Position numbers and translations under genes: made by a program. Positions 6,383-54,495 of a stretch of DNA of 64,000 nucleotides are shown here, piece by piece. Position 1 is the first letter of the stretch, and each line of letters opens with the position of its first letter. Below the pieces are notes generated by a model. The model ran no database searches and was not told where the DNA came from. It saw nothing but the letters and a program-made list of their open reading frames with translations. This DNA comes from a phage. The stretch lies in assembly GCA_024683775.1 (NCBI GenBank), contig GCA_024683775.1_4106.1; one strand, given 5' to 3'.

Positions 6383-6384
6383 AA

Positions 6385-16154: not shown

Positions 16155-16187
16155 AAATATATAGTTAATAACGGTGAGTAACTATCT

Positions 16188-17125: not shown

Positions 17126-17193
17126 GCAATACACATCACCAAACATCATAGGCCGCTCTCTAGCGGCCTTAACTATATCAGGAGTACATACAC

Positions 17194-20461: not shown

Positions 20462-20715
20462 TCAATTTAAGTAAAGATGAATATACCGAGCGTATGACAA
20501 AAATTACACACAAACGTAATACAATCTATCACAACCAAAAAATTCAACACAGTAAGAAAATGATTATGATGCGTGAGTTAAAGATGGGTGTATTCTTGGG
20601 AACAAACTATCAAGAGCCAGAAGTAAATCGATTAATTGATGAGTTACTATTGGAAATCAAAGGTAAGCTGTACTTTTATCAAATGACCCGTCCACTAAGG
20701 TGTACTGATCGATGA
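20458..20715 (+). CDS. family A small protein (85 aa)
   Basis: Family A motif LGTNYQEPE; ATGA overlap. Confidence 0.7.
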   Translation: MINLSKDEYTERMTKITHKRNTIYHNQKIQHSKKMIMMRELKMGVFLGTNYQEPEVNRLIDELLLEIKGKLYFYQMTRPLRCTDR

Positions 20716-20954
20716 ATATTGTGAATAACATCAGATTAGCAGAAAGATTTGATAGAATTGGGGAAGCTATGAGAAGATACGATAAAGAATATGGTCATTT
20801 AAGCTTTACGATAGAAAAGAGATATGAACTTGAAGCAGAGTTTAAAATGCAGTTCCTTTTAGGTACACAGTATCAAAACCAATATGTAGAAAAATGGATT
20901 TCACTTTTAATCCAGACAATTTACGTAAGGAACATTAAATGCAAAATGAAATGA
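20712..20954 (+). CDS. family A small protein (80 aa)
   Basis: Family A motif LGTQYQNQY; ATGA overlap. Confidence 0.7.
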   Translation: MNIVNNIRLAERFDRIGEAMRRYDKEYGHLSFTIEKRYELEAEFKMQFLLGTQYQNQYVEKWISLLIQTIYVRNIKCKMK

Positions 20955-21175
20955 TATACTTAACACATGATGAGTTAACAGAAAGACTAGATAAATCCAA
21001 AAAACTTACAAAATATCTTCCACACAACCCAAACCAAACCCCAGCAGAAAGGAGTGCAGAAGTTTTATTCCAAACATTACCATACCTTCTTGGAACTGAT
21101 AGGCAAGAGTATCATATTGAACGTATAATTAAATATCTCAAAATTACTATTATGGAAAAAGTAAATGCAAAGTGA
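20939..21175 (+). CDS. family A small protein (78 aa)
   Basis: Family A motif LGTDRQEYH; subgroup with N-terminus MQNEMIYLT. Confidence 0.7.
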   Translation: MQNEMIYLTHDELTERLDKSKKLTKYLPHNPNQTPAERSAEVLFQTLPYLLGTDRQEYHIERIIKYLKITIMEKVNAK

Positions 21176-21395
21176 AATGATATACTTAACGAATGAAGAA
21201 TTTCAAGAGAAGATGTTAAAAGCCAATAACATTACTCTTAAGTTCGTTCCAAATCAATCAATATATGAAATGTCTGCGAATGTATTGTTTCAGAAGCTAC
21301 CATACGTTCTTGGAACTGATAAACAAGAATTTATGGTTCAAAATATGATTGAACATCTTGTAATGAGTATTAAGGAAAAAGTAAATGCAAAATGA
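21165..21395 (+). CDS. family A small protein (76 aa)
   Basis: Family A motif LGTDKQEFM; close paralog of 20939. Confidence 0.7.
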   Translation: MQSEMIYLTNEEFQEKMLKANNITLKFVPNQSIYEMSANVLFQKLPYVLGTDKQEFMVQNMIEHLVMSIKEKVNAK

Positions 21396-21642
21396 AATGA
21401 AATACTTAACAGACGATGAGTTAAAAGAACGATTAATTAAATCCAGAAAACTTACAAATCAACTTCCAAACGACACAAACAAGTCACCTGCCGAAAGGAG
21501 TGCAGAAGTTTTATACATTCAACTCATGTACTTTCTTGGAACTGACAGACAAGAGTATTACATTGAAAGTATGCTTCGATATCTTAAATTCTCTATAAAG
21601 GAAAAGATACATGCTCAAGAATTTAAAAATCCTAACAGTTAA
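21385..21642 (+). CDS. family A small protein (85 aa)
   Basis: Family A motif LGTDRQEYY; close paralog of 20939. Confidence 0.7.
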   Translation: MQNEMKYLTDDELKERLIKSRKLTNQLPNDTNKSPAERSAEVLYIQLMYFLGTDRQEYYIESMLRYLKFSIKEKIHAQEFKNPNS

Positions 21643-21868
21643 TGAATATCATAAGATTGTAATGAAAACTAATAGTGCAATTTCTAAAAAATCAAACCCA
21701 AAGTACATACTGGAACACACATTTGAAGAACGTCAATTAGCTTTAGTTGAAGCAAAACTTCTTGCACTCCTAGGAACAAACTATCAGGAAGAATACATCA
21801 GAAAACTAATATACCTTTTAACTAAACACATCAGGAAAAGAAAAAAGCATGAAGCACTTGACAGATGA
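21611..21868 (+). CDS. family A small protein (85 aa)
   Basis: Family A motif LGTNYQEEY. Confidence 0.7.
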   Translation: MLKNLKILTVNEYHKIVMKTNSAISKKSNPKYILEHTFEERQLALVEAKLLALLGTNYQEEYIRKLIYLLTKHIRKRKKHEALDR

Positions 21869-22079
21869 TGAACATGGGCTTATAGTAATGGATGTAATCA
21901 ACATCGAATACAAAAAGTTGATACGCTACCGTTGTTATGAAGATAAGCAACTCGTTCTAGCAGAACAGAAGTTGTTTCGACTCTTAAACACAAACTTCCA
22001 AGCACAATACGAAGAATCGTATATGTACCTTTTGGCGAGGAAAGCAAAAAGAGATTATGAAAATTTTAAGCCACAGTGA
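21849..22079 (+). CDS. family A small protein (76 aa)
   Basis: Family A motif LNTNFQAQY. Confidence 0.7.
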   Translation: MKHLTDDEHGLIVMDVINIEYKKLIRYRCYEDKQLVLAEQKLFRLLNTNFQAQYEESYMYLLARKAKRDYENFKPQ

Positions 22080-22272
22080 ACAAACAGAATTGTTAATCTT
22101 TAATACAAGTAAATTCTTAAACATAACATTGTCTGATATAGATGAGGATGAAAAAGAGTTACTTAGAGCAGATTTAAGAGTTCTTTTATATATTGGAACT
22201 AACTTCCAAGAGCAATTCGTTGAGGACTACATCGATGAACTTAAAGAATCTGTACTGAGAACATGCAAATGA
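22057..22272 (+). CDS. family A small protein (71 aa)
   Basis: Family A motif IGTNFQEQF. Confidence 0.7.
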   Translation: MKILSHSEQTELLIFNTSKFLNITLSDIDEDEKELLRADLRVLLYIGTNFQEQFVEDYIDELKESVLRTCK

Positions 22273-22505
22273 AAATCCTTTCACCAAGTGAATACCACGA
22301 ACTATTAAGTAGTTTAATTCTAAAATTGTATATAGCAAAGACCACAGATTTACCTGATGAAGAAAAAAATATTCTAATGAGTGAAATCTATGTTAATTCT
22401 ACCCTAGGGACTAACTATCAAGAATGTAATATTAATGATTACATCAAAGAACTAAAAAGGTTTATCCAATGCAAATGCGAATCATTACTGAAACAGAATA
22501 CCTAA
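22263..22505 (+). CDS. family A small protein (80 aa)
   Basis: Family A motif LGTNYQECN. Confidence 0.7.
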   Translation: MQMKILSPSEYHELLSSLILKLYIAKTTDLPDEEKNILMSEIYVNSTLGTNYQECNINDYIKELKRFIQCKCESLLKQNT

Positions 22506-22711
22506 CAATCTTAAATGGACTGTTTTTGAAGTTATTTGCCATTAACACATCAAAACTACCAGATACTGATAAAATTATTAAGTTAAATGAAATCTATGTT
22601 CAAGCTACACTGGGAACTAACTATCAAGAAGCCAATGTGTATAATTACATTAATACACTCAAAAGGGTAATAAAATTAAAATGCACAAACAGCCAATACA
22701 CAAACCCCTAG
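22469..22711 (+). CDS. family A small protein (80 aa)
   Basis: Family A motif LGTNYQEAN; close paralog of 22263. Confidence 0.7.
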   Translation: MQMRIITETEYLTILNGLFLKLFAINTSKLPDTDKIIKLNEIYVQATLGTNYQEANVYNYINTLKRVIKLKCTNSQYTNP

Positions 22712-22911
22712 GAACAGCAGAATACATTGAACTAATGGCTGCAAACTTCTCATCCTTTAAGAAACTGATGCAAGAATCAAATAATGATTTAGAATATCAC
22801 ATCAAAAGTTCAGATTTAAGATTGCTACTCACTCTAGGAACAGATTCCCAAGAGCGATTTGTCAATGAGCATATTAGAGCACTTTTAAATGGCATCAGGA
22901 ATAAACTATGA
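22681..22911 (+). CDS. family A small protein (76 aa)
   Basis: Family A motif LGTDSQERF; start overlaps previous gene by 31 nt. Confidence 0.65.
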   Translation: MHKQPIHKPLGTAEYIELMAANFSSFKKLMQESNNDLEYHIKSSDLRLLLTLGTDSQERFVNEHIRALLNGIRNKL

Positions 22912-23123
22912 AGGAAATATCAAATCAAGAGTACTTGGCACTATTCAGGAAGAATAATCACAAATATATGGCACTTGATTCAAGAACTGATATAAGTGAA
23001 CTTCAGAAAAATCTTTTGCGTTCAGAGATGATAGTACTGACACTCTTAGGAACACAGCATCAAGAGAGAACTGTTAATTCACACATAGAGATTCTTATGC
23101 AGATAGTACAGGAAAAGATATGA
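22908..23123 (+). CDS. family A small protein (71 aa)
   Basis: Family A motif LGTQHQERT; ATGA overlap. Confidence 0.7.
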   Translation: MKEISNQEYLALFRKNNHKYMALDSRTDISELQKNLLRSEMIVLTLLGTQHQERTVNSHIEILMQIVQEKI

Positions 23124-23341
23124 GAATCATAACACAACAAGATATTCTTAAGTTCACAAGGGTTCATGCATCTGAATTTGATGCTATATTATCAAAAAGT
23201 TACAACAACCCTTATACAGAAGATGTACATTACAGTGAATTATGGATGTATATACTTTTAGGTACAAATAAGCAAGAGCAAGCAGTACAGAAGTATTTGA
23301 CAGCTTTACGTGATGCTACAGCTAATGGAGTACGTGTTTAA
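23120..23341 (+). CDS. family A small protein (73 aa)
   Basis: Family A motif LGTNKQEQA; ATGA overlap. Confidence 0.7.
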   Translation: MRIITQQDILKFTRVHASEFDAILSKSYNNPYTEDVHYSELWMYILLGTNKQEQAVQKYLTALRDATANGVRV

Positions 23342-23342
23342 T

Positions 23343-23594
23343 ATGAAAGTACTGACAGAACTAGAAATGTATCATAGATTTAATAAGTACTATCATTTAC
23401 TTAAGCCTATACAGAGGATTAAATGTCCATTTGAAGAGAAACAGGTTTTAATCTATGAGCACAAGTTCTTTGTATCATTAGGTACAGATCAACAAGAGTA
23501 CTATTTGACGTTGTACTTGATTACATTAATAGATTTCATTCACTATAAAACCACACAATCTAAACAAGCTAATAAAGAGAAATATGAAAACTAA
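23343..23594 (+). CDS. family A small protein (83 aa)
   Basis: Family A motif LGTDQQEYY; start trimmed to MKVLTELEMY right after previous stop. Confidence 0.65.
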   Translation: MKVLTELEMYHRFNKYYHLLKPIQRIKCPFEEKQVLIYEHKFFVSLGTDQQEYYLTLYLITLIDFIHYKTTQSKQANKEKYEN

Positions 23595-23922
23595 TATAAA
23601 ACTCAAGGTATATAAATCATTTGCAAGTACATACATCAAATGCCATACATGTAACTCTGTAATGGACTACAAAGGTAAGCCATTTGCACTTACTTATGAT
23701 AATACAAGAGGTTTTTATATATCTTTTGCTGATTACAAATATAACATGTACGAACACATTGACATTGAAGATTTAAGTACTTTATCTGAAGAGGAATACT
23801 TTCAAGAATCATTAGTATGGGATTTGGAGTTTCCTATGCCATTAGTACATAAAATGATAGTACTAATAAAAGAAACTAAACCTGTACCTAATGGTTATGA
23901 AGAACACATTATTGAGTATTAA
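23584..23922 (+). CDS. family B protein (112 aa)
   Basis: Motif EEEYFQESLVWD; near-identical tandem duplicate of CDS 23937. Confidence 0.7.
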   Translation: MKTNIKLKVYKSFASTYIKCHTCNSVMDYKGKPFALTYDNTRGFYISFADYKYNMYEHIDIEDLSTLSEEEYFQESLVWDLEFPMPLVHKMIVLIKETKPVPNGYEEHIIEY

Positions 23923-23936
23923 TATATAAGGTAACT

Positions 23937-24278
23937 ATGAAAACTAATATACAACTCAATGTATACAGTTCAGAAGAACATACATATATCAAATGCAGTC
24001 TATGTAAAGATGTAATGGACTACAAAGGTAAGCCATTCACAATTACTTATGATTCTGATGTTAATGATTTATATATATCATTTCTTAATTACGAAAAGAA
24101 AATATACAAGCACGTTGATATTAAAGATTTAAGTACTTTATCAGCAGAGGAATACTTTCAAGAATCATTAGTATGGGATTTAGAATTTCCTATGCCATTA
24201 GTACATAAAATGGTAGTCCTAATGAAAGAAGCTAAACCGGAGTTTAATGGTTATGAAGAACACATCGTTGAGTACTGA
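23937..24278 (+). CDS. family B protein (113 aa)
   Basis: Motif AEEYFQESLVWD; SD AAGGTAA upstream. Confidence 0.7.
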   Translation: MKTNIQLNVYSSEEHTYIKCSLCKDVMDYKGKPFTITYDSDVNDLYISFLNYEKKIYKHVDIKDLSTLSAEEYFQESLVWDLEFPMPLVHKMVVLMKEAKPEFNGYEEHIVEY

Positions 24279-24281
24279 ACA

Positions 24282-24497
24282 ATGAAAATATTATCATACG
24301 AAGATTACCGCAAGCTTCGCGGTATTTTGCGACCAGAAATTCAAAGAATTAATTCTCTTCCTATATCTAATGCAGAATGTTCAGTACTGAAAGATGAGTT
24401 AATATTAAAACACACAGTAGGAACTAACTATCAAGCTGATAGTGTTCGATATCTAATTTGGGGATTAATATGCATAGTAAAGGAAAAACAAGCTTGA
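24282..24497 (+). CDS. family A small protein (71 aa)
   Basis: Family A motif VGTNYQADS. Confidence 0.7.
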   Translation: MKILSYEDYRKLRGILRPEIQRINSLPISNAECSVLKDELILKHTVGTNYQADSVRYLIWGLICIVKEKQA

Positions 24498-24522
24498 CAG
24501 TACTTTTCATTACTGATATAGT
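24494..24522 (+). promoter_or_regulatory. candidate sigma70-like promoter (TTGACA-17-TATAGT)
   Basis: Hexamers read directly upstream of CDS 24554. Confidence 0.5.
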
Positions 24523-24553
24523 ACCTGTACGTTAATCATTAGGGTAGAAAATT

Positions 24554-24799
24554 ATGTTGAATTTTTTAAATTTCCTTATCGTCTTGTGTATTGTTCTTGG
24601 GATTGCACCATTTGTATTGTATTTCATGGATTCCGATGAAATGCAAAAGATGAATTGCACAAGGACAGGACAGAGTAGAGAAGAGACGATTCTTATGCCT
24701 GTTACCGTTATTGTTAATAATATGCCCATTACAAACATGGTCCCTACCCTAACGACAACGTACCAGTACTCTTGTACAGACGGAGAGAGGTGGAGATAA
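24554..24799 (+). CDS. small membrane protein (81 aa)
   Basis: ORF; SD AGGGTAGAAA upstream; hydrophobic N-terminal helix FLNFLIVLCIVLGIAPFVLYF. Confidence 0.6.
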   Translation: MLNFLNFLIVLCIVLGIAPFVLYFMDSDEMQKMNCTRTGQSREETILMPVTVIVNNMPITNMVPTLTTTYQYSCTDGERWR

Positions 24800-25122
24800 T
24801 GCGTAAGTTCAATTGTATTGTACGTAAGAATTCATGTTACATTGTAGTAGCTGATTTTAATACAGGTTCTGGGTTGAAGATATTTGAGTACAGAAAATGC
24901 AATAATTCTTTTCATTGGAAATTGGGTGCAAGAAAAGCAAAAACAATTTCAGTACCGAATTTATGTTCTATCTCTGAAGAAGAAGAGTTTCAGTACTTGT
25001 TAGTACATGATGATTCTTTAGGATTTACATTCGAAGATATGAAGGAAGTACAAAAGCAGATGATTGCACATTGTCATCTTCCACCGAATTTTGTTCAACG
25101 CGTATGTGAATTCTACATATAA
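24799..25122 (+). CDS. family B protein (107 aa)
   Basis: Motif EEEEFQYLLVHD; SD GGAGAGAGG upstream; trimmed from track ORF 24772. Confidence 0.65.
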   Translation: MRKFNCIVRKNSCYIVVADFNTGSGLKIFEYRKCNNSFHWKLGARKAKTISVPNLCSISEEEEFQYLLVHDDSLGFTFEDMKEVQKQMIAHCHLPPNFVQRVCEFYI

Positions 25123-25131
25123 GAGAAGAAT

Positions 25132-25443
25132 ATGAAATTTAATATAGCAAAAACATCGAGTATATGTATTTTTGGTTATGCAGAAGAGTTAGGTGATATT
25201 GACATTCTTTTGTACAAAAAGGATGGTGTTATGCATTTCAAGTACCAGGATGAAGAGGCAGACAATTATCTTTTACCTAATTTAGTACAAATGCAGGAAG
25301 AGGAATTATTCCAGTACAGCTTAATATACGACATTGATATTTGCACGATGCCAGTATTAATTAGTATTCAAAAAGTGATGCTCGATATGTATGATAATTT
25401 AATACAAGGTACAGCAGGGATAACCAAACATGTCAATATATAA
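25132..25443 (+). CDS. family B protein (103 aa)
   Basis: Motif EEELFQYSLIYD. Confidence 0.7.
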   Translation: MKFNIAKTSSICIFGYAEELGDIDILLYKKDGVMHFKYQDEEADNYLLPNLVQMQEEELFQYSLIYDIDICTMPVLISIQKVMLDMYDNLIQGTAGITKHVNI

Positions 25444-25636
25444 GGATTTACCTAATGCATATATGTTGAAGTATAAAGAGTTTATTAAAGATGTATATGT
25501 AGATCCGTTCAATATAAAATTATCAGAGTTCGATGTATCATTTTATCTAGGGACAATAGTACAGGAACAATACGTTGATAAGCTCATAAGGTGCATGAAA
25601 AATGAGATTCGATGGAGATTAGATGCAAATGTATAA
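25430..25636 (+). CDS. family A-like small protein (68 aa)
   Basis: Motif LGTIVQEQYVDKLI; located inside array B. Confidence 0.65.
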   Translation: MSIYKDLPNAYMLKYKEFIKDVYVDPFNIKLSEFDVSFYLGTIVQEQYVDKLIRCMKNEIRWRLDANV

Positions 25637-25880
25637 AAAGATAGATGCTTATTTGTATGCTTCAAAGTACAGGGATTTTTGTTTACGAGGGGGAGAGGAA
25701 GATTTCGCTCTGAGATTATCTGAATTTAATATGTTATTTTATCTTGGTACAAAAGAACAAGAAGATACAGTACAGAAATTTCTCAATCATCTTGTACAAA
25801 AAATTAATATGCAAATTTTGATGCTTAAGTTACAGAATGAGATAAATGAATATGAATCCAGAAATAGTTCAGGATCTTAA
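25623..25880 (+). CDS. family A-like small protein (85 aa)
   Basis: Motif LGTKEQEDTVQKFL; located inside array B. Confidence 0.65.
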   Translation: MQMYKKIDAYLYASKYRDFCLRGGEEDFALRLSEFNMLFYLGTKEQEDTVQKFLNHLVQKINMQILMLKLQNEINEYESRNSSGS

Positions 25881-36239: not shown

Positions 36240-36550
36240 AATTCTTATACAGTATTCAGTACATTCCTGGTACAATTAGTTTAATGTATTTCTTCGATCA
36301 TGATAATTTCCAGCACCTTGCCGTTAGAAGATGTAATGAATCTTTAATGATTGAATATCTTCACGATTGTGATTATATTCCTGACTTCCTTGAATGTGAT
36401 TATAGAGATGATCATGAAACATTTCTTTTTCAGGAATCACTTGTATGGGATAAGAGAATTAATTTTCATGCCTTAATTGAGATACAAAAACAAGTGAAGT
36501 ACTACTGGGATTACTTAATTACCCAAGAATATATAGAGATTGAAATATAA
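36236..36550 (+). CDS. family B protein (104 aa)
   Basis: Motif ETFLFQESLVWD; ATGA overlap. Confidence 0.7.
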   Translation: MKFLYSIQYIPGTISLMYFFDHDNFQHLAVRRCNESLMIEYLHDCDYIPDFLECDYRDDHETFLFQESLVWDKRINFHALIEIQKQVKYYWDYLITQEYIEIEI

Positions 36551-37023
36551 TGTACGAAAGTGATCTTAAGCACGCTGAAGAATTAGTTAATATAGTAAAG
36601 TTCTTTCAAAATAATGTAAAGTACTTAGACTATAAAGGGGCATATATTAGTACTATAAGTGTTGGAACAGATATACTAGGATTAGGTAATGAATATAAGT
36701 ACGAGTCCCATGATTATGATTTGGAATTCAAGTACTTCGTATGGGATTCTGGAACTTTCTATTATATAGAGGAAGGTGGAAAATATTTTGAATTCACAGA
36801 AGAAGAAGTACTATTTTTAAATTCAGAAGATGCTTACTTCCAGTACAGTACTATATACCCAAATAGTGCATTAAGAGCTTTGGTAGTTTTTAATGCATTC
36901 CTGAAAGAGAACTTTAATAATTCTATATTCATTGATTTAGATTATGTATATGAACTAAATCAGGTGATATATATGGAGTCCAGAAAAAATGAGTTACGAA
37001 AGTGCAATCAAGAAAGCAAATGA
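36550..37023 (+). CDS. family B protein (157 aa)
   Basis: Motif EDAYFQYSTIYP. Confidence 0.7.
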   Translation: MYESDLKHAEELVNIVKFFQNNVKYLDYKGAYISTISVGTDILGLGNEYKYESHDYDLEFKYFVWDSGTFYYIEEGGKYFEFTEEEVLFLNSEDAYFQYSTIYPNSALRALVVFNAFLKENFNNSIFIDLDYVYELNQVIYMESRKNELRKCNQESK

Positions 37024-37968: not shown

Positions 37969-38164
37969 TCGAATTGAATACATGAGAACTGTGAGTGCAG
38001 TGTGGGACATATGGTTCACTACTAAACCAAAAATGGATTACCATGACTTTAAGCTATTGTTCTTCGTTGGCTCTAACAAACAGGATGTTGCAATGAAGGG
38101 TTATATTCAGCACTTACAGGAACTAATCCAGAAGAGAATATATGAAAATAATAGACCAAGATGA
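37946..38164 (+). CDS. family A-like small protein (72 aa)
   Basis: Motif VGSNKQDVAMKGYI; inside array B. Confidence 0.65.
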   Translation: MKYSKTFNRIEYMRTVSAVWDIWFTTKPKMDYHDFKLLFFVGSNKQDVAMKGYIQHLQELIQKRIYENNRPR

Positions 38165-38333
38165 TATTGCTAAACTATTCAATATATATTCTTCTAAAAT
38201 GATGCAAACCGACTCATATAGTACTGAATTCAAAGAATTAAAAGTACTGATGTATTTGGGCACACAGTATCAGGAACAAGTTGTTAAAGAATATATTGAT
38301 TCTTTACAGAAGGATATCCGTTATGTACAATGA
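38142..38333 (+). CDS. family A small protein (63 aa)
   Basis: Motif LGTQYQEQVVKEYI; inside array B. Confidence 0.7.
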   Translation: MKIIDQDDIAKLFNIYSSKMMQTDSYSTEFKELKVLMYLGTQYQEQVVKEYIDSLQKDIRYVQ

Positions 38334-44036: not shown

Positions 44037-44547
44037 AGATGATATTCTAATCAGACTAATCAACAGTCTGTTAAAATTCGTGAATAGTGATAGCGATACA
44101 CACAATGTAGGTGACATTGAATTCAAATCATTTGGAATGTACGGTGAGGACAAAACATATTATGCATCAATGAAATTCCAAGATTATTATGAAATGTTAA
44201 TTGCGTTAACATACGAAGATGTGGACCCAAGATGGAGTTCCAGTATTTCTCTGTCGAGAATGGTAATTCGTAGTAAACATCGTTACATTTCGTCAAAGAA
44301 TACTCCTAATTTGTTTGATATTGTTTTGAATGAAAATACCAACCCCCCATCTAAACATGATATCGTACCTTTAACTGATGAAGTACAGTTTCAATTGAGT
44401 ACCATTTGTGATGAAGATGTGATATCATGTATGAAAATTTACGAGAAGATTGGTAGTGATATCCCTAAGAACTATTACATAACAATAGATGGAACGTACC
44501 TCCGAGATGAGGCTCTAGCGTACATTGACAGCGTTTTACCAAAATAA
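44029..44547 (+). CDS. family B protein (172 aa)
   Basis: Motif DEVQFQLSTICD; trimmed from track ORF 43963. Confidence 0.65.
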   Translation: MNKDDILIRLINSLLKFVNSDSDTHNVGDIEFKSFGMYGEDKTYYASMKFQDYYEMLIALTYEDVDPRWSSSISLSRMVIRSKHRYISSKNTPNLFDIVLNENTNPPSKHDIVPLTDEVQFQLSTICDEDVISCMKIYEKIGSDIPKNYYITIDGTYLRDEALAYIDSVLPK

Positions 44548-44568
44548 AGACCCTTATGGGTCTTTTTG
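44548..44568 (+). terminator. rho-independent terminator
   Basis: Hairpin AGACCC-TTAT-GGGTCT followed by TTTTT. Confidence 0.75.
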
Positions 44569-44578
44569 TGTTTAGTGC

Positions 44579-44607
44579 TTTACATGAGCATTCAGGTGTG
44601 TTATAAT
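44579..44607 (+). promoter_or_regulatory. sigma70-like promoter (TTTACA-17-TATAAT)
   Basis: Hexamers read directly; SD ACAGGAGAAG follows before CDS 44635. Confidence 0.6.
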
Positions 44608-44634: not shown

Positions 44635-45198
44635 ATGAGTACTGAATTAATTAAAGAAATCACATTGTTGGTAAAGCATTGTTTTAAGTTCATTGATGAT
44701 AATGGTTCACGCCAGTACATTAAAGTTAATGAGAAATATAACATTAACGTCCTAAAGAATGAAACCGTTAACAGTTATGCAAACATTGAGTTAGATGTTG
44801 AGGACAAATACACAGCATTACACATCATTTCGTCCGGCGATAGAAAACAAGATTATCGTTCTACATTTTATGATGATAGTGTTACTGTTGGTTATAAATT
44901 TCATAAAAATAAAATTGCTTATAAGAATACATACACACATGAAGTAATTGAAGAGTACAATTATAAAATTAAAAAAGACGAGTACGATGTACTTTTATTC
45001 AATGCGAATCTCATACACAACGCTGGTACTGTTCGCAATCTTATGTTAGCATATGAAATTCCAAAGATTATAGAAAGAAATGAATTGATAATCTTTAAAA
45101 CTATATTAAAATTCAGTACAGAAGAATTAGAAGATCTAGTACTGGCTCTTAAGACGTTCATCAATGAACATGTACCTGTTAAATTAGAGGACTTATAA
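44635..45198 (+). CDS. hypothetical protein (187 aa)
   Basis: ORF with promoter and SD; no family motif recognised. Confidence 0.65.
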   Translation: MSTELIKEITLLVKHCFKFIDDNGSRQYIKVNEKYNINVLKNETVNSYANIELDVEDKYTALHIISSGDRKQDYRSTFYDDSVTVGYKFHKNKIAYKNTYTHEVIEEYNYKIKKDEYDVLLFNANLIHNAGTVRNLMLAYEIPKIIERNELIIFKTILKFSTEELEDLVLALKTFINEHVPVKLEDL

Positions 45199-45782
45199 TG
45201 CAAGCTGAACACATTCAAATTATGAAATTGATGCATGACATTGCAGAACTATCTGAAAAGCACAACATTACTGAACATGAGCCTATTGGAAATTATCGTC
45301 TTAAAGTTGAATGCAAATCACCATATCGTTTTGGTTCAGTAGTACTGGAGTCTTATAAAGTTTACGATTATGGAACGACAAAAAAAGGTTCATGGGATAC
45401 TATGGCAATGTATATCCGTACATCAAGGCATAGTGAGCGAATTGGTTCCATTACTCCAAACATGATATTTGTCAATGCTTTACACGAAGATATTAATCGA
45501 ATTGTTGAATCTAATTTTGATGACGTAGAGAATGATACATATTTGGAAATTCCACCAGAACTAGATCAAAGTGAAGACATTCGTGAAGCATACATTTTCC
45601 AGAGATCAGTACTTGACAACTTCAAGGAGTTTGAGTACATGATGCTTTGCTATGAAACTGCAAAAGCTATTGACACTGGTGAATTGGTAATGTATAGTAA
45701 GTTCATTAACTGTGAATCCGATACATTAAAAGAGCTACACACGGCAATCAAAAACATCAAGGATACATATGAACGCTTATAG
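45198..45782 (+). CDS. family B protein (194 aa)
   Basis: Motif EAYIFQRSVLDN. Confidence 0.65.
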   Translation: MQAEHIQIMKLMHDIAELSEKHNITEHEPIGNYRLKVECKSPYRFGSVVLESYKVYDYGTTKKGSWDTMAMYIRTSRHSERIGSITPNMIFVNALHEDINRIVESNFDDVENDTYLEIPPELDQSEDIREAYIFQRSVLDNFKEFEYMMLCYETAKAIDTGELVMYSKFINCESDTLKELHTAIKNIKDTYERL

Positions 45783-46347
45783 TTATATGACAGCCCGACA
45801 CCAACAGCTATATGATATCAGTACAAAGATGCTACACATTGTTGGTAGTGCCAAAGAAATTAACAAACATTACCTCATTCGTGATGTGTCATTTTCATCT
45901 AAATGTTTGTCCAAAGAATATTACGATCACGGTATTCTTACTATTTCTGGTGCCAGGAATATTTGTATTGTAAAAAATAATAGTAAAAGTAATGAAGAGT
46001 GCGAGATTAGATCCGATATCCAAATTAATGATGATGGAAGTTTTTCACACCATCCATTTCATATTAGTACTGTTGGTGTTTTATATAATATTAAAGTACT
46101 ATTCGGTGATAAAGAGTATGAGTTAAAAGCTATCAATCCAGAATCAAGTACAGTTGATGAAGAACTGTTTCAGATGAGCACCGTTATACCTGAAGAGGTT
46201 CTTAGTACTGTTGTTTTTTGTAGTTTAATTTATCACACATACAAAAAGAACCAGTTCGATTTCCACATTTTAGGAACGTACATCTTCAATACTTTGAATG
46301 TTGATCGTTTAAAAGCATTAAATGCAGCAATGGATAAGGTGCTATAA
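45769..46347 (+). CDS. family B protein (192 aa)
   Basis: Motif DEELFQMSTVIP. Confidence 0.7.
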   Translation: MNAYSYMTARHQQLYDISTKMLHIVGSAKEINKHYLIRDVSFSSKCLSKEYYDHGILTISGARNICIVKNNSKSNEECEIRSDIQINDDGSFSHHPFHISTVGVLYNIKVLFGDKEYELKAINPESSTVDEELFQMSTVIPEEVLSTVVFCSLIYHTYKKNQFDFHILGTYIFNTLNVDRLKALNAAMDKVL

Positions 46348-46775
46348 TGACAAGAGATGAATGCTTATACATATGGGATATAATTGAAACTACACTTTCA
46401 AATCCAGAAAATTATAAAACAAAAAAAAGACAACGACACAAAATATGGATAGATTTGTTCGTTGAGGGCATACACGCAGTGACTATTTGGGATTCACCGA
46501 GGGCATCATCATCTACTCTGTTGGACAATGAATGCATTGATTGCATTAATTCCAATTTTCATCTCCACGGTACTACATATTTCGGCACATTTCTGGATAT
46601 TGAAAGTAAAGATGATATTGATTCACTTGCTTTACAATACGGAGTACTGTATGATACTAAATTAATTTACGATTTAGTACTAGCTTCTTATGTGTATAAA
46701 TTAATGATGAAATACAATCACATTTCTGTATCAGTTTATACTAAGGATATTCTTTCATTAAGAGACAAAACATGA
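46347..46775 (+). CDS. hypothetical protein (142 aa), possibly divergent family B
   Basis: ORF; weak motif DSLALQYGVLYD. Confidence 0.55.
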   Translation: MTRDECLYIWDIIETTLSNPENYKTKKRQRHKIWIDLFVEGIHAVTIWDSPRASSSTLLDNECIDCINSNFHLHGTTYFGTFLDIESKDDIDSLALQYGVLYDTKLIYDLVLASYVYKLMMKYNHISVSVYTKDILSLRDKT

Positions 46776-47278
46776 GTTTATTAAATGCACGAGAATTAGT
46801 TGAGATGTATGAGATCTTATCTTCATATAAAAATTCCCCAAAAGATGTAATTCTAAACAAAAAGTTCCATGTCAGTGTTGAACATATAACAAATATAGAT
46901 ATGATTTCTTTGGTGGAAAGTAATAAGTCAGGTCTGGAGCGTGATATCATGCGTTTGATTTATATTCCTAAACCATCATATACTAATGATAGTACTATTA
47001 GCAATGAGACATTCATGTATAGTCCTGGTACGGATTCTACTATAGTATCGCTGTCAAATAAATCAATGGATACTTTCCAATTCATCTATACCAGTACTGA
47101 TAACATTGAAGAAAATGAATTCCAAAACAATACATTAAGTTCATGTAGTAGTGTTATAACCTTTATGTCATATCTGTGGTCAATCAAATCAAATGCAATT
47201 GTATATAGTTCTAATTACACACAAGATAGTATTGTTGAATCATTTAAAGTTCTAAAGGAATACTATGAAAATAACTAA
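46772..47278 (+). CDS. family B protein (168 aa)
   Basis: Motif EENEFQNNTLSS; ATGA overlap. Confidence 0.65.
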   Translation: MSLLNARELVEMYEILSSYKNSPKDVILNKKFHVSVEHITNIDMISLVESNKSGLERDIMRLIYIPKPSYTNDSTISNETFMYSPGTDSTIVSLSNKSMDTFQFIYTSTDNIEENEFQNNTLSSCSSVITFMSYLWSIKSNAIVYSSNYTQDSIVESFKVLKEYYENN

Positions 47279-47846
47279 TGATTTTATTAGAAGCTTAGTG
47301 CACCCTATGCTTGGTGTTATGAAAAAATTACAAACTCTACCTGAAGACAACGATTACAAGTTTAATCGTTTTGATTCAGATGTGTTTTGTATTGAAATGG
47401 AAATTAATAACAATCGTTATTTTCATTTAAAATTCAAAGAATCGTCGAGTTCGCACTACAACTTTGACATGAATTTTAAAATAAGCAATGATATTGAAGA
47501 AAACGCAATATCAAATCATATTAGCAGAAATGGTTTCATGCATAGAACTAATATGTTCAATAATAAAAACAGTATTATATCTAAATGGAATCATCAATTC
47601 ACTAAAATTTGTGATATTGATTGCAGTACATTTGGTGAAGAACAATACTTTCAGTTAAGTACAATACATGAACTTCCACCATATGATTGTGTAAAAACAT
47701 GGTTTGATATTCATAATATAATTGATGATGCAATCGTACTTCCATTTGGGTTGTCAATATCATATACTGCACCTAAAACGTTTGTTTTTACTGAAGATAT
47801 GATTATGAAAAAGATATGGGCGATGATGCCACTTATGCTTGATTAA
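47265..47846 (+). CDS. family B protein (193 aa)
   Basis: Motif EEQYFQLSTIHE; paralog of 47858. Confidence 0.7.
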   Translation: MKITNDFIRSLVHPMLGVMKKLQTLPEDNDYKFNRFDSDVFCIEMEINNNRYFHLKFKESSSSHYNFDMNFKISNDIEENAISNHISRNGFMHRTNMFNNKNSIISKWNHQFTKICDIDCSTFGEEQYFQLSTIHELPPYDCVKTWFDIHNIIDDAIVLPFGLSISYTAPKTFVFTEDMIMKKIWAMMPLMLD

Positions 47847-47857
47847 CGGAGAACTAC

Positions 47858-48409
47858 ATGAATCAAAGTCATGATCTTTTTAAATTATGTGCATCCAAAG
47901 ATGTGGAAGGATGGGCAGATAAAATCAATACAATTATTAACCGTTATCTTGGCTTCTGTGCACGTTCACGAAGTGAAGGTTCAATGCGTTTCCAAATAAC
48001 CATGACAATCGATGGTGTTACGATTTATGTCAACGAAGAGCGTCTTGGTATTATTCTCTATGATAGTTGTGTCTTTGCTATTCACCAGAAAATGGGGGCA
48101 GGTTGGGGTTGTAATAATATGAACACCAATGCTTTTTTCTGGGTAGGTCATAGCAACACAGTACTTGATCCTTCAAAGAAATCAAACCTTTTAGATGATA
48201 ATTTGGTATATGATTTAGCTTACTCTGAAGAACAACATTTCCAGTTAAGTACAATACATAGCTTAGTTCAATATGAAGATTGTATCAAAGCATTAGAATT
48301 ATGTCATTCACTTGAACTTAAAGAAAAATTGATACAAATTTACCCGTTGTTCTTCCATGAAGAAGTACAATGCACACTAGATCATATTTTATATGGGTAC
48401 GACAAATGA
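47858..48409 (+). CDS. family B protein (183 aa)
   Basis: Motif EEQHFQLSTIHS. Confidence 0.7.
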   Translation: MNQSHDLFKLCASKDVEGWADKINTIINRYLGFCARSRSEGSMRFQITMTIDGVTIYVNEERLGIILYDSCVFAIHQKMGAGWGCNNMNTNAFFWVGHSNTVLDPSKKSNLLDDNLVYDLAYSEEQHFQLSTIHSLVQYEDCIKALELCHSLELKEKLIQIYPLFFHEEVQCTLDHILYGYDK

Positions 48410-49008
48410 GAAAAAGTTATCAAGAAGCTATTGACCTAGTTCGAGAAGTTATTAAGGTGGCTCCAGGTGCGATAGCATTCAAGAAGTCCCTATATAAAAA
48501 GTATGGTCCCATGTCAAGTATGTGCTGTCAAAAGAAACGTAGTAAATTCACTACGCAGTACTGGCATGATTCTATTATCCTGAGTAATGAACATCAGCGT
48601 ATTTTAACAATCGAATCAGTAGATAATCAATATGGTGAAGGAATGATTTGTGTTCCTGACTATGATGAAATTAATTTCAATTGTGGAGATTATGAGACTA
48701 CATTATTATTACACGAGGGTTACCCTGAAGGTGATGTAATGGCAGAGTATAACCCAAAAACCAAAATACTGAAACGTGGTATGCAGTTCAAAATCAATAA
48801 CAAAGATGATGTGGAAGCAGCACTAATGCAACTTAGTACTAGTGAACCTATCACTATTGATGTAGAAGAGTTATGGGGAATCATTTCAGTACTTAATGAG
48901 TGTTATAAAATTAAATCATTACACAAGTACGCTATCATTTTACATACTAATTGTGCAATGATAAAATGCAAGAACATACAAGAGATGGCGGTTCCAGATG
49001 AACTTTAA
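48406..49008 (+). CDS. hypothetical protein (200 aa), possibly divergent family B
   Basis: ATGA overlap; weak motif VEAALMQLSTSE; trimmed from track ORF 48370. Confidence 0.55.
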   Translation: MRKSYQEAIDLVREVIKVAPGAIAFKKSLYKKYGPMSSMCCQKKRSKFTTQYWHDSIILSNEHQRILTIESVDNQYGEGMICVPDYDEINFNCGDYETTLLLHEGYPEGDVMAEYNPKTKILKRGMQFKINNKDDVEAALMQLSTSEPITIDVEELWGIISVLNECYKIKSLHKYAIILHTNCAMIKCKNIQEMAVPDEL

Positions 49009-49582
49009 AGAAATAGAAAGTAAAATTAAGTACTTTAAAGATATTAAAAAACTTTGGGAAAAGTATAAAATTGATTATCAATTCCAAGATGATGATACTG
49101 TTCAAAACATTGATATTAATATTCGTGTAAAGTTCAAGAATGGCAATTATGGCGAAGTTAAATTGAATGCTATTGGTATATTCCTTAAGGATTATGATGG
49201 TTCTTCACTCGCTCAATTCGATTTCACACCTGATCCTGATGATATGTTATTGAGTGAAGTCAATGCATATGACCTTGAGATGTTTAATGGTAAACCTTTA
49301 CTATTCCGCTTATCAGATGAATGGGATGAGATTTACTACACATACAAAGATGGTGTGATTCGAGACGCAAATGATGAAGTAGTAAATGATATGGAAGAAC
49401 GTCTATTTCAAGAATCATGTGTGTCATCGGAGTCATATACATATCAATATCTACTTGACATGTTCGATTTGTATAGTAAAATAGATTCAGAAATGAGTAC
49501 ATTGGGTATTCATTATCTTACAATCAACGACTTTGCACAACTTGAAACAGCGGTTAAAGCCCTTGTCAAAGTACTGAAATAG
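48998..49582 (+). CDS. family B protein (194 aa)
   Basis: Motif EERLFQESCVSS. Confidence 0.65.
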   Translation: MNFKEIESKIKYFKDIKKLWEKYKIDYQFQDDDTVQNIDINIRVKFKNGNYGEVKLNAIGIFLKDYDGSSLAQFDFTPDPDDMLLSEVNAYDLEMFNGKPLLFRLSDEWDEIYYTYKDGVIRDANDEVVNDMEERLFQESCVSSESYTYQYLLDMFDLYSKIDSEMSTLGIHYLTINDFAQLETAVKALVKVLK

Positions 49583-49591
49583 GAATGAATA

Positions 49592-50005
49592 ATGAAACTG
49601 TATCATGCGAGTACTGTAAAAATTGATAACTTTTATATCCCGTATGGTGGCCTTCATATGGGTGGCAAACACAGTGCTTTAGAAGCTGCATTACGCAAGC
49701 TGAGAAGCCCACTGAACGTTGTTGACGCTGATACAGTATACTTACATACCTTAGAAGTTGATGTTGATAACGTGCTTCTGTGGACGGATATGGGCAGTGA
49801 CGACGAATGGCGTGGAGTGATTGAGTACTGCGAAATTAACGGCTATGATGCAGTTCAGTACAAAAACGATTACGAACCAGATACAGTTCCTAGCTATATG
49901 ATTTGGGATACGTCTAAGGTTCGCATTGTTGAAGTTGATGCTATGCACATGGATGACGCAGAAATGATCATCGAAGATTTCCTTGATGAATATGAAGGTG
50001 TATAA
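49592..50005 (+). CDS. hypothetical acidic protein (137 aa), compositionally distinct
   Basis: ORF; SD TAGGAATGAATA upstream; visibly higher GC than neighbours; no family motif. Confidence 0.65.
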   Translation: MKLYHASTVKIDNFYIPYGGLHMGGKHSALEAALRKLRSPLNVVDADTVYLHTLEVDVDNVLLWTDMGSDDEWRGVIEYCEINGYDAVQYKNDYEPDTVPSYMIWDTSKVRIVEVDAMHMDDAEMIIEDFLDEYEGV

Positions 50006-50523
50006 TGATTGAACCTATGACAGTACTAGCACGTACTAAATTATTATTGAAGATTGCTGAAATATTCACTGTTCTTATGTACAATAATAAAGACATAAAT
50101 GACTTAGATATTAAGCAACCGTGGCAAATTACAAAGTTCACGGCGTTCCACCGATTGTCATATAATGGTGAAACTGTTCTTGATTTTAATCCAAAAGCCA
50201 AGTTCGTGAATTACGCTGCATTATATGGATGTAATGGTGGATTAACAAATGACTTCACTAAAATAAAAGTACAATCAGAATCATTAGAATTTAATGACTT
50301 ACTATATCCAGAATTTAAGTTAACTGAAGAATCACTATTTCAGTACTCACTAATTATAAAAGATGTATATGATCTTGAGTACTACAAAGAGTTAGTAGAT
50401 ATTTTTAAGAATACTCGACTTTCAAAAGATATTGTGATATTCTGGTATGTTGAGTATGTTACAGAGGAATTGCTTGAAGAATTTCTTCTAAATATGACAG
50501 CAATCAAGGAGAAGTTATGTTAG
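50005..50523 (+). CDS. family B protein (172 aa)
   Basis: Motif EESLFQYSLIIK. Confidence 0.7.
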   Translation: MIEPMTVLARTKLLLKIAEIFTVLMYNNKDINDLDIKQPWQITKFTAFHRLSYNGETVLDFNPKAKFVNYAALYGCNGGLTNDFTKIKVQSESLEFNDLLYPEFKLTEESLFQYSLIIKDVYDLEYYKELVDIFKNTRLSKDIVIFWYVEYVTEELLEEFLLNMTAIKEKLC

Positions 50524-50990
50524 ACATTTTAGGAAACATCGATACAGCAAATTATTTTATTCAAGATGCACTGTTCAATACAGTACAGAAAGGGTTGGAT
50601 GTACGATGTAATATCCATCAGGGAGATGGGTATTTTGTTGATATCACTGAAACACGCAAGAACGTGTTCAATTTAAACATTACCACATTAGCACGTCAGA
50701 ACATTGCACGCATTCTGGTCAATAAAGATGAAATAGTTCTTCGTTATAATTCCAAATTCTTGTTCACATACAAGAAGAAGACTGACATGTTCAGTACTAA
50801 TTTGTTTGATGAACCCTTCAATCTGGAAGACTTAGAAGCAACTTTCTTTACACAGAACACTATGCTGAAATTCAATGATGTTGAATTTTCATCAGAAGTA
50901 ATGTCTGAAACACTACAAATGGTTAAGGTAGTATTCTATGCTTTTCAACAGTTTAACGAAGAACGAAACAAGGTTAACAACAACAGATGA
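50517..50990 (+). CDS. hypothetical protein (157 aa), possibly divergent family B
   Basis: Weak motif LEATFFTQNTML. Confidence 0.55.
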   Translation: MLDILGNIDTANYFIQDALFNTVQKGLDVRCNIHQGDGYFVDITETRKNVFNLNITTLARQNIARILVNKDEIVLRYNSKFLFTYKKKTDMFSTNLFDEPFNLEDLEATFFTQNTMLKFNDVEFSSEVMSETLQMVKVVFYAFQQFNEERNKVNNNR

Positions 50991-51351
50991 ACTAATCGCG
51001 GCGATGGGAGCCAATGAGAAATACTTCAATGGGATTCATTTTTTTAAAACAGATCTTAGTGAAAGTAAAGTACTATATGTGTATGGTTCCCAGTACTGCA
51101 TTGTTACAAAGCACCCCGATGCGATTTCACTAAAATTTAATACTTATTCAAAAAACTTCTTGACGATTAATAAAAGCAATGTTACTATGTCTGGTATAGG
51201 GAATCAGGTTGTTGAGATTCCTTTGGACTCAATTGATTCTATTGAGTTCTTTCAATACGAGTGCTTAGGTGTTGATTTTGGTACTGTCAGTACTGAATCT
51301 ATGCGAACATTAATTAATTTACTTAAAGGTAAAGTTCATGCTTTTAACTAA
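50938..51351 (+). CDS. family B protein (137 aa)
   Basis: Motif SIEFFQYECLGV; start overlaps previous gene by 53 nt, alternative ATG at 51004. Confidence 0.55.
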   Translation: MLFNSLTKNETRLTTTDELIAAMGANEKYFNGIHFFKTDLSESKVLYVYGSQYCIVTKHPDAISLKFNTYSKNFLTINKSNVTMSGIGNQVVEIPLDSIDSIEFFQYECLGVDFGTVSTESMRTLINLLKGKVHAFN

Positions 51352-51838
51352 TTCGATGAAGTATTCATTTAAAATTATCAAAGAAATACTAAATGGATCT
51401 AAAAATCATAGTGGGTCTTCCTTTACTAGTGACCAGATCCAACACAGTACAAAGGATTGTACTGTAATCTTTGGGTTACATAGTCTGCGTTTGACAATAG
51501 TAAATAATATTGATAACACAGCAATTGTAATCACCCCATGTCATATTCAGAATGATACTGGTGTATACTTACACCACATGGGGACTGTATTCTACATCTT
51601 CAATACTGAAGAAAACATTGTTAAAGAATACAACACACTCAATGTTGATGCAGGTGAGTTATTCCAATTGAGTACTGTCAATGATTGTAACTTCAGTGAC
51701 AATGCAGAAGTACTTCCATTGTTTCTAAGTCTTCTCAATAACATGGAAAAACTAACCACTGCATACAACAAAAGTGACGTACCGCAAGCAGTATTGAATA
51801 TCACCGAAGCAATGGAGAAATACAAAGCTGTGACCTAA
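51338..51838 (+). CDS. family B protein (166 aa)
   Basis: Motif AGELFQLSTVND. Confidence 0.7.
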   Translation: MLLTNSMKYSFKIIKEILNGSKNHSGSSFTSDQIQHSTKDCTVIFGLHSLRLTIVNNIDNTAIVITPCHIQNDTGVYLHHMGTVFYIFNTEENIVKEYNTLNVDAGELFQLSTVNDCNFSDNAEVLPLFLSLLNNMEKLTTAYNKSDVPQAVLNITEAMEKYKAVT

Positions 51839-51880
51839 TATATGTGCACATGGAGTGCCTTTGAAGATCAAGGATAGATC

Positions 51881-52354
51881 ATGGAGATTAAAACTGTTGA
51901 GAATGGAAAGATAGATGACATTTTAGAGTTGGACGCATTCAAAGTTCATGATATAATGTTCAATGTAAAGGACATAATTCAGTGCTTGTTTTTATGCAGT
52001 AAAACTATGCACGACTTCTTTCACAATCCAAATACTAATGTTTTCATACTAACAATCAGTACTAGTAATTCGTTTATCATGGGTATGCCTATGAGTACAA
52101 ATGACGAGTACATTGATTGTGTTATTCGTAACAATGATAATATTACCCCACAATCTGAAGTACGTAAGAAAAAGAATACATACACCATCAAAGATGATAA
52201 AATCATGATGTGTTGTAGTAAAGGGTTTATTTTGGATAATTTTAAAGTGAAAGATAGTTATCATGATTTTAAAGTATCAGAGACACAAACTAATGTAGTT
52301 CTTTACGCAAGTGATATTGAAAGCCTAACAGTTAAAGATCCCGATTTGGAGTAA
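51881..52354 (+). CDS. hypothetical protein (157 aa)
   Basis: ORF; no family motif. Confidence 0.55.
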   Translation: MEIKTVENGKIDDILELDAFKVHDIMFNVKDIIQCLFLCSKTMHDFFHNPNTNVFILTISTSNSFIMGMPMSTNDEYIDCVIRNNDNITPQSEVRKKKNTYTIKDDKIMMCCSKGFILDNFKVKDSYHDFKVSETQTNVVLYASDIESLTVKDPDLE

Positions 52355-52356
52355 GT

Positions 52357-52488
52357 ATGGCTAAAAATGTAAACAACTTTGTACAAAAGCATATGAATGA
52401 GTTTAATAAACCTCAAACACATGTGGACCGTAAAAAAGCAATGAAGAATGGTAAAGTAAAACACAAGTCGAGATTTATTCTCGACTAA
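52357..52488 (+). CDS. hypothetical Lys-rich small protein (43 aa)
   Basis: ORF not in track; starts 3 nt after previous stop. Confidence 0.4.
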   Translation: MAKNVNNFVQKHMNEFNKPQTHVDRKKAMKNGKVKHKSRFILD

Positions 52489-53386: not shown

Positions 53387-53680
53387 ATGGATACTAAATT
53401 CAAACTTATTTTCAAAACAGAGCCGTATATCCCTTATACTGGTGAACGTTTTATTCCACCTGGTGCAGTGGAGATTGAGCATCCTGATGGAACAAAATTG
53501 TATCTCAGCCCATGTTCGTATGAACGTGCAGTTGAAATGCTAATTATGAATAGCAAACACTGTAGTAATAAGTACATTAGCTACTTATACAATGAACATA
53601 TTCTAGAATTTAATGATGAGAATATGTTTATGCTGGCTATTAACGATTTCAATAACTGGCACGAAAGTTTGACTATTTGA
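53387..53680 (+). CDS. hypothetical protein (97 aa)
   Basis: ORF; SD TGGAGGA upstream. Confidence 0.65.
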   Translation: MDTKFKLIFKTEPYIPYTGERFIPPGAVEIEHPDGTKLYLSPCSYERAVEMLIMNSKHCSNKYISYLYNEHILEFNDENMFMLAINDFNNWHESLTI

Positions 53681-53751: not shown

Positions 53752-54138
53752 ATGAATACAAGTTCTGTTCTAAAAGCTATTGGTGGTGTACTTCTGATTG
53801 AAGTCCAGGGTGAACCTAAGCTATGTTGCTTAGAAGACATGAAGAATACTAAACACTTCAGTACTGGACAGATTTTCAATGCTATTCGTGTTCTTAACGA
53901 CAAATCAGTACAAGACTATGGAAAGGTATGGCCTTCGTATGTAAATCCTGAAGGTGAAATTAGTGCTGATTGGAAAACAATTGAAGCAGTACGTGTGAGT
54001 TGTGAGAGCGATTGGGATTTCATCGTTGAAGTATGTGACCAACTGCAAGAAGATGTGCCAGAGATTGTCGAACGTAAAGAAGTTCTTGCACAACTTGATA
54101 AATTCCGTCACGGTACTCTACCGTATGACGTAATCTAA
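53752..54138 (+). CDS. hypothetical protein (128 aa)
   Basis: ORF; extended -10 promoter (TGATATAAT) and SD AAATGGAGA upstream. Confidence 0.65.
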   Translation: MNTSSVLKAIGGVLLIEVQGEPKLCCLEDMKNTKHFSTGQIFNAIRVLNDKSVQDYGKVWPSYVNPEGEISADWKTIEAVRVSCESDWDFIVEVCDQLQEDVPEIVERKEVLAQLDKFRHGTLPYDVI

Positions 54139-54189: not shown

Positions 54190-54495
54190 ATGGAAGACAA
54201 CGGAATGAAATTTGATATGTTTGAAGGTGTACCAGAGTTCGATTTCAATAAACTTGAAAATGGTGAAGAATCAGAACTAGTAAGTGTTACACTAAAATCA
54301 GATACCAAAAAGAAATATTCCCCATCAGTTCGTTCACGTTCTCAAGAAGAATATGAAACCTTCATTGAGAGTATTCATTACGAAACGTTCCATCATGCAG
54401 ATGGTACTCCGTATGAAGTTCGTGTTACAGTACTGAAGCCTGAAGTAAACCCAATGGAAAATCTACGTCCTGTTTACTGCTGGGCAAGCCACTAA
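54190..54495 (+). CDS. hypothetical protein (101 aa)
   Basis: ORF; SD AAAGGAA upstream; terminator downstream. Confidence 0.65.
   Translation: MEDNGMKFDMFEGVPEFDFNKLENGEESELVSVTLKSDTKKKYSPSVRSRSQEEYETFIESIHYETFHHADGTPYEVRVTVLKPEVNPMENLRPVYCWASH

Follow-up and report, generated by a model that had tools for sequence, protein, structure and literature searches.

ADP-ribosyltransferase (ART) domains occur in the giant, injected polyvalent proteins of many phages. This clade, ART-PolyVal (PF18760, related to the Tox-ART-HYD2 clade), is regarded as the commonest of the macromolecule-modifying domains with which phages, whether by delivery or by expression, act on host proteins, by analogy with Alt, ModA and ModB of phage T4 (PMC5512222). 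The same analogy underlies the prediction that ARTs from jumbo phages and from polyvalent proteins are host-modifying enzymes (PMC5512222, PMC7824862, PMC9503650). Alt, ModA and ModB themselves are phage ARTs that have been proposed or shown to modify the host RNA polymerase and other host proteins early (PMC5512222, PMC7824862). The active site of the polyvalent clade has been described as a histidine on strand 1, a tyrosine on strand 2, and an aspartate on strand 5 (Iyer et al. 2017, PMC5512222). In PARP, the motifs of the H-Y-E-type ARTs are HGS, YFA, and YNE (PMC7955679). Biochemical tests of ART-PolyVal members or of their solo relatives were not found in the searched literature, nor were experimental data on the protein described here or on its close relatives.

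The gene at 49592-50005 of the window (the whole stretch of 64,000 nucleotides of phage DNA that was analysed) encodes a new, solo, and divergent member of this enzyme family, which is known from computational work. The relationship offers a probable biochemical function for a gene that is hypothetical in PHROGs and in most GenBank records. The gene also lies in the tens of kilobases of paralogous ORFan arrays that make up the most poorly understood section of Rak2-like jumbo-phage genomes.

The gene, its operon, and the surrounding arrays

The 2 kb around the gene are 99.2-99.7% identical to the Escherichia phages WPEC5, EC.P1, WPEC3, Ecwhy_1, and fEgEco12, and about 80% identical to PBECO4 and 121Q. 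Because of these identities, the window is assigned to an Asteriusvirus genome, that is, a PBECO4/121Q-like jumbo coliphage. Asteriusviruses are Rak2-like jumbo myoviruses of about 350 kb. The gene lies within a tightly packed same-strand run (44635-52488). The following features lie in this run or just before it.

44546-44607, plus strand: terminator-like hairpin (44546-44565), then a near-consensus sigma-70-like promoter, TTTACA-17-TG-TATAAT (44579-44607), found by pattern scan
49581-49584, plus strand: Shine-Dalgarno-like AGGA, 7 nt 5′ of the ATG and overlapping the stop of the upstream gene (49580-49582), read from the sequence
49592-50005, plus strand: coding sequence with ATG start and TAA stop for a 137-aa stand-alone protein with a predicted ART fold, a solo relative of the ART-PolyVal domain
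50003-50007, plus strand: TAATG junction, an overlap between the stop of the gene and the start of the array gene that follows (172 aa), read from the sequence
52466-52486, plus strand: terminator-like hairpin at the end of the run, found by pattern scan

An earlier note on this DNA had described an acidic ORF of 137 aa with its own Shine-Dalgarno sequence, and both features are present. The product has a pI of 4.27 (about 4.3), with 28 D+E against 10 K+R. The TAATG overlap suggests translational coupling to the downstream array gene. The hairpin and promoter at 44546-44607 occupy the only sizeable intergenic gap upstream and are the putative start of the operon, with the hairpin at 52466-52486 as its putative end. 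Overall, promoter-like sites are not enriched over shuffles, and terminator-like sites number 12 against 4.9 expected. The layout, which consists of pattern matches only, fits early transcription by the host polymerase.

The motif 'EExxFQxST' (regular expression [FM]Q[LMEYHR][ST] after acidic residues) is located at about two thirds of the protein length and marks 26 array ORFs at 23.5-51.8 kb. It does not mark 49592-50005, and so the absence of the family motif, also reported in the earlier note, holds. The 26 ORFs (23584-51838) fall into three length classes of about 110, about 150, and about 170-210 aa, and into several BLAST families, two of them large. BLASTP splits the length classes into separate families, and hhalign joins their profiles only around the motif (probability 60-80%). 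RaK2, GAP32, Yen9-03, and metagenomic relatives carry the motif in their corresponding arrays as well. The fuller form of the motif is 'EE-x-x-FQ-[ELY]-S-[TL]-[IVL]-[WYH]D', as in ORFs 23584-23922, 36550-37023, 47858-48409, and 51338-51838.

Three further observations concern this region. A second tandem family comprises 30 very small ORFs (about 65-93 aa) at 17653-25880 and at 38142-38333; they are mostly arranged head-to-tail with overlapping stop and start codons, and form the largest BLASTP cluster in the window. ORF 50938-51351 (137 aa) is only 40% identical to its ph0011 counterpart, with a dN/dS of 0.68, among neighbours that are 66-94% identical; sequence comparison marks this position as hypervariable in a gene order that is conserved otherwise. 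In ORF 48370-49008, the longest frame opens at 48370, with a 40-nt overlap with the upstream gene. Its true start is probably the ATG at 48406, because the alignment to the PHROG covers the product from residue 13 on and the product annotated in ph0011 has 200 aa.

Fold, family, and candidate active site

The AlphaFold2 model, made with 27 homologues, has a pLDDT of 92.1 and a pTM of 0.85. Its elements are ordered beta-beta-alpha-beta-beta-alpha-beta-beta-beta-alpha, and both the model and Foldseek place the split beta-sheet ART fold in the product. Foldseek against the PDB agrees with this fold, with MbcT/RES as the best structural match. Against viral models (BFVD), the matches include 'ART-PolyVal-like' phage proteins and a polyvalent protein with an N4-like virion RNA polymerase. 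One BFVD match, A0A2C9D1N7 of fHe-Yen9-03 (199 aa), carries the UniProt label 'ART-PolyVal-like domain-containing' and lies outside the ten genes flanking the ART orthologue. Rak2-like phages may carry more than one ART of the ART-PolyVal clade elsewhere in the genome; HMM searches of the window ORFs found no further one within the window.

Searched against 1.84 billion proteins, the family profile recovers 128 representatives; most are solo proteins of 110-150 aa, and 109 of the 120 full-length domain matches are in proteins shorter than 200 aa. The same profile also matches domains embedded in proteins of 2400-3700 aa (library-wide E 1e-13 to 1e-4), in regions that Pfam labels as PF18760 ART-PolyVal with up to 53.6 bits. 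In the reverse direction, an HMM from nine multidomain proteins only gives 57 bits to residues 2-116 of the product and matches no other ORF of the window. The BLAST and profile comparison that had been proposed for this gene thus recovers homologues and ties the product in both directions to PF18760-bearing domains; neither BLASTP nor HMM searches link it to any other ORF in the window, the arrays included. The orthologue is independently named a putative ADP-ribosyl transferase in the GenBank records of ph0011 and Muenster. By its predicted structure and these profiles, the product is shown to have an ART fold and to be homologous to the ART domains of polyvalent proteins.

Scanning the product directly against family libraries did not identify it. 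The Pfam ART-PolyVal model (gathering score 31.2 bits) does not match the ORF or its 26 close homologues, even at E <= 1, and reaches 9 of 89 members of the wider family at E <= 0.01. Scans of Pfam, NCBIfam, and PADLOC gave nothing significant, and a weak Pfam match to PARG_cat_C (E 0.24) was dismissed. PHROGs assigns the product to phrog_11632, whose function is not known there. PDB sequence-profile searches gave no true relatives; the RecA matches among them were set aside as weak matches summed over concatenated RecA repeats.

Residue conservation was read from 90 representatives that are at most 50% identical to each other. H5, H22, G24, D66, W73, Y90, N92, E95, and S101 are invariant or nearly so, and the polar residues H5, H22, D66, Y90, N92, E95, and S101 form the family-wide invariant set. 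The main conserved blocks are listed below.

49604-49612, plus strand: codons of H5-A6-S7 on strand 1 ('LYHAS'; strand 2-7 of the model), the predicted H-x-[ST] NAD-binding motif of H-Y-E-type ARTs
49646-49666, plus strand: codons of G19-G20-L21-H22-M23-G24-G25 on strand 2, with H22 at the strand-2 aromatic position, placed by conservation
49859-49909, plus strand: codons of Y90-K-N92-D-Y-E95-P-D97...S101-Y-M-I-W-D106, the most conserved block of the family, placed by conservation

In the first block, H5 is present in 82 of the 83 non-gap representatives and S/T7 in 73 of 90. By analogy, H5-A6-S7 would be equivalent to the 'HGS' motif of PARP. The second block has H22 in 88 and G24 in all 90 representatives, follows the family pattern G20-x-H22-[F]-G24, and aligns with 'mHFGt' of the polyvalent-protein ART domains. 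In the third block, Y90, N92, E95, and S101 each occur in 90 of 90; the block aligns with 'YkNkyEd...SYvvFD' of the polyvalent ART domains, and D97 is invariant among close homologues of the product. E95 is the candidate catalytic acid, and only a candidate because it sits in the model in the loop between strands 87-91 and 101-104, six residues before the next strand.

The resulting H...H...E pattern is an exact fit to none of the canonical triads on strands 1, 2, and 5 (H-Y-[EDQ], R-S-E, and H-H-h). Compared to the published triad of the polyvalent clade, the strand-1 histidine is present, strand 2 has histidine and not tyrosine, and the acidic residues are the invariant E95 and D97. The PF18760-positive polyvalent domains recovered here carry the same 'HFG' and 'YxNxYE' motifs. 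In its motifs, the product therefore resembles the recovered PF18760-positive members, though not the published verbal description (PMC5512222).

Base composition and conservation across Rak2-like phages

The visibly higher GC reported for this gene relative to its family B neighbours is borne out. Its GC is 0.416 against a pooled 0.321 in 16 neighbouring array genes (z 4.2), and none of 67 genes at 20-56 kb reaches this value. By codon position, the gene differs from the neighbours at GC1 (z 4.1) and GC3 (z 2.3), with no difference at GC2. Recoding the product with the synonymous usage of the neighbours predicts a GC of 0.381. The excess of +0.095 comprises about 0.060 from the amino-acid sequence (about two thirds) and about 0.035 from synonymous codons (about one third). 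G, A, V, D, and E make up 42% of the product, compared to 20-32% in neighbours.

The different codon choice claimed in the earlier note stands, in a modest form. Among 17 genes, this one has the poorest fit of synonymous codons to the usage pooled over the neighbours (z -2.6, p about 0.007). Codon statistics no different from those of the neighbours, the result that the note had named as counting against its claim, were not obtained. The difference is modest, not dramatic, because three neighbours also fit poorly (z -2.0 to -2.3).

The window itself has a compositional step. The first 17 kb or so (1-17200) has a GC of 0.41 and a GC3 of 0.38, and the paralogue arrays (20000-56000) have a GC of 0.32 and a GC3 of 0.29; the ART gene goes with the former group and not with the arrays. 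Compared to the genes at 0-17 kb (mean 0.410), its GC has a z of 0.2, and its composition is ordinary for the same phage elsewhere. The orthologue has a GC of 0.39 against 0.31 in the flanks in ph0011, 0.38 against 0.27 in RaK2, and 0.333 against 0.34, hence no elevation, in GAP32. The GC3 of the ph0011 orthologue is 0.304, and the raised GC3 is thus not common to both. Because the orthologue is richer in GC than its flanks in ph0011 and RaK2 but not in GAP32, the contrast reflects AT-rich, fast-evolving arrays around a constrained gene and not a foreign origin. The higher GC would be a by-product of a constrained enzyme rich in Gly, Ala, Val, Asp, and Glu, set among genes that evolve rapidly and have drifted towards AT. 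Within these arrays, locally raised GC is the mark of a constrained gene for an enzyme, not of foreign DNA.

Presence at this position in related phages, a check that had been proposed, gives a consistent picture. An orthologue occupies the same slot, among same-strand genes for about 170-210 aa, in ph0011 (Asteriusvirus), RaK2 (Alcyoneusvirus), GAP32 (Mimasvirus), and fHe-Yen9-03 (Eneladusvirus). By tblastn, it is found in 75 phage records, which comprise essentially the whole Rak2-like clade (including CBB, XbC2, Munch, and BF) and three Vibrio phages of about 130 kb (38% identity). Related solo genes occur in unrelated Vibrio phages without arrays. A degenerate-pattern scan from the close alignment recovered only Rak2-like phages and a few other large phage contigs. 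The distant solo homologues whose surroundings were looked up lie on contigs of just 1-4 kb, which say nothing useful on gene context.

The product is 59% identical to that of RaK2 and 47% to that of GAP32. In GAP32, no counterpart is detected for the ten upstream array genes or for the one directly downstream; in RaK2, the same flanking genes are undetectable or weak, with 26-35% identity over partial alignments. Homologues of the product form 33 clusters, in addition to the 128 distant representatives of the profile (50% identity level). For the neighbour 47858-48409, a search of 5.8 billion proteins gives only three clusters of homologues, and Asteriusvirus is the source of them all. The dN/dS of the gene against ph0011 is 0.12, which indicates purifying selection, and most neighbours are likewise under purifying selection. 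A conserved gene at an old, fixed position among fast-evolving paralogous genes is thus supported, and the arrays have flanked the ART since before the Rak2-like genera diverged.

Some other genes of the region are kept as well. At 44-55.4 kb, only the ORFs 51881-52354, 53752-54138, 53387-53680, 54190-54495, and 50517-50990, in addition to the ART, are clearly conserved in RaK2 (42-62% identity), and all of these except 53387-53680 also in GAP32 (37-54% identity). In two Asteriusvirus genomes of 310-319 kb, Salmonella phages SD-1_S14 (OR699183.1) and SD-6_S16 (OR699182.1), the ART gene is seemingly absent or truncated. Compared to the window, both show 100-700-bp deletions at intervals of a few hundred bases, and many of their ORFs are broken up. 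Assembly artefacts or heavy genome degradation are the probable cause, and the records are unfit for presence or absence calls. They were discounted as evidence that the gene is dispensable, since the deletions riddle the whole region.

Proposed function and comparison with known systems

The product is probably an active ADP-ribosyltransferase that uses NAD+ and modifies a host macromolecule early in infection. H5/S7 and H22 would bind NAD+, and E95 (or the Y-x-N-x-x-E block) would transfer ADP-ribose to the host macromolecule, most likely a protein. A promoter read by the host RNA polymerase would drive its early expression, along with that of the fast-evolving array genes around it, and the product would contribute to the takeover of the host or to counter-defence. 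Some evidence tells against this proposal: the closest structural match of the model, MbcT/RES, is an NAD+ phosphorylase and not a transferase, the Pfam ART-PolyVal model misses the ORF, and strand 2 has His rather than Tyr.

In a different and unlikely reading, the product would consume NAD+ as an NADase or NAD+ phosphorylase, like the RES toxins MbcT and NatT, whose family is structurally closest to the model, in place of ADP-ribosylating a macromolecule. Host NAD+ pools or NAD+-derived immune signals, for example, could then be manipulated. An ART acting on nucleic acid, either on DNA like DarT or on RNA ends like Tpt1/KptA, is rather improbable. Structural matches of this kind score well below the protein-modifying and RES ARTs, the family has an invariant acidic residue that the H-H-h clade does not have, and the polyvalent ART clade is grouped with protein-modifying ARTs (PMC5512222). 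A catalytically dead ART-fold binder, such as a sensor of NAD+ or ADPr or an inhibitor, is quite improbable, as 90 highly diverged representatives all keep the polar residues at the expected active-site positions, a pattern typical of active enzymes, and the ART domains of polyvalent proteins share the same motif.

Other readings concern the origin of the gene and its relation to the arrays. The earlier note had left open an independently acquired or a conserved-core gene, and the conserved alternative is the one that stands (same slot in four genera, 33 clusters). The locally highest GC and the worst codon fit of 17 genes, the lack of any relationship to the array families, and the solo homologues in Vibrio phages would suit a foreign gene that recently landed in the array. 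Against this are the same position in four genera, a GC typical of the genes at 0-17 kb, the share of the GC excess that is fixed by the protein sequence, the GAP32 orthologue without GC elevation, and the stop/start overlap that ties the gene into the operon. Recent independent acquisition is not supported; this reading is highly improbable and already largely refuted, and an ancient capture before the Rak2-like genera diverged is possible. It is exceedingly improbable that the gene belongs to the surrounding array family, either as its founder or as a member that has diverged to an extreme degree; the arrays would then consist of degenerate ART-like proteins. The array motif 'EE-x-FQ-x-S-h-h-[WY]D' has a superficial likeness to the ART block 'E95...S101-Y-M-I-W-D', and the BFVD fold matches include Rak2-like phage proteins of about 185-199 aa with 6-11% identity. 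Nevertheless, hhalign of three array-family profiles against ART profiles gave a probability below 1%, and Pfam found no ART domain in the array genes of this window or in ten Yen9-03 neighbours. The AlphaFold model of array member 47858-48409 is uninformative (pLDDT 38) and places the motif in a helix. The idea that the arrays are degenerate ARTs was rejected for want of support. An iterative HMM search from three family-B paralogues recruited nothing further. It is very doubtful that a single functional module, in the manner of a 'disassembled polyvalent protein', is made up of the ART together with the hypervariable 'EExxFQxST' arrays, the ART working with or on the array proteins. If so, the array proteins might be interchangeable specificity adaptors, decoys, or regulators that steer ADP-ribosylation among host targets or defences. 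If anything new is hidden here, it may lie in the one conserved ART that keeps a fixed array position in different genera.

Compared with known systems, the ADP-ribosyltransferase proposed here resembles the RES-domain toxins (MbcT, ParT, NatT, and Res) in structure only. These belong to toxin-antitoxin pairs and rely on R-E-S for catalysis; Prs is the ADP-ribosylation target of ParT, and MbcT acts as an NAD+ phosphorylase. The product has no match to a RES signature in Pfam, NCBIfam, or PADLOC, and no antitoxin-like partner of the gene is evident. Similarity to the anti-CRISPR ADP-ribosyltransferase AcrIF11 (PDB 6kyf) is at the fold level only and ranks below many other ARTs, and nothing points to CRISPR-Cas as the target. 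The general motif logic is like that of the PARP-type H-Y-E ARTs, whereas the product has His at the strand-2 position.

T4 ModA and ModB are likewise small early-gene products, the early expression of 49592-50005 being predicted from its operon layout. In contrast, Alt, ModA, and ModB belong to another ART clade with an R-S-E active site, compared to H...H...E here, and have no sequence similarity and no Pfam or PHROG link to the product. The likeness to them would be a functional analogy.

ART-PolyVal is alike in profile homology in both directions, in the ART fold, and in phage origin. The shared motifs are YH-x-[ST], G-x-H-F/x-G, D-x-G...W, Y-x-N-x-Y-E, and S-Y-h-h-[FW]-D. However, the product is a single domain of 137 aa and not part of a virion-delivered polyvalent protein of several thousand residues, its gene lies in an apparent early operon and not among structural genes, and residues 120-134 add an acidic helix at the C-terminus of the product. 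The product is small, looks soluble, and is modelled with confidence; with H5, H22, and E95 as candidate catalytic residues, it offers an easy entry to the solo relatives of ART-PolyVal.
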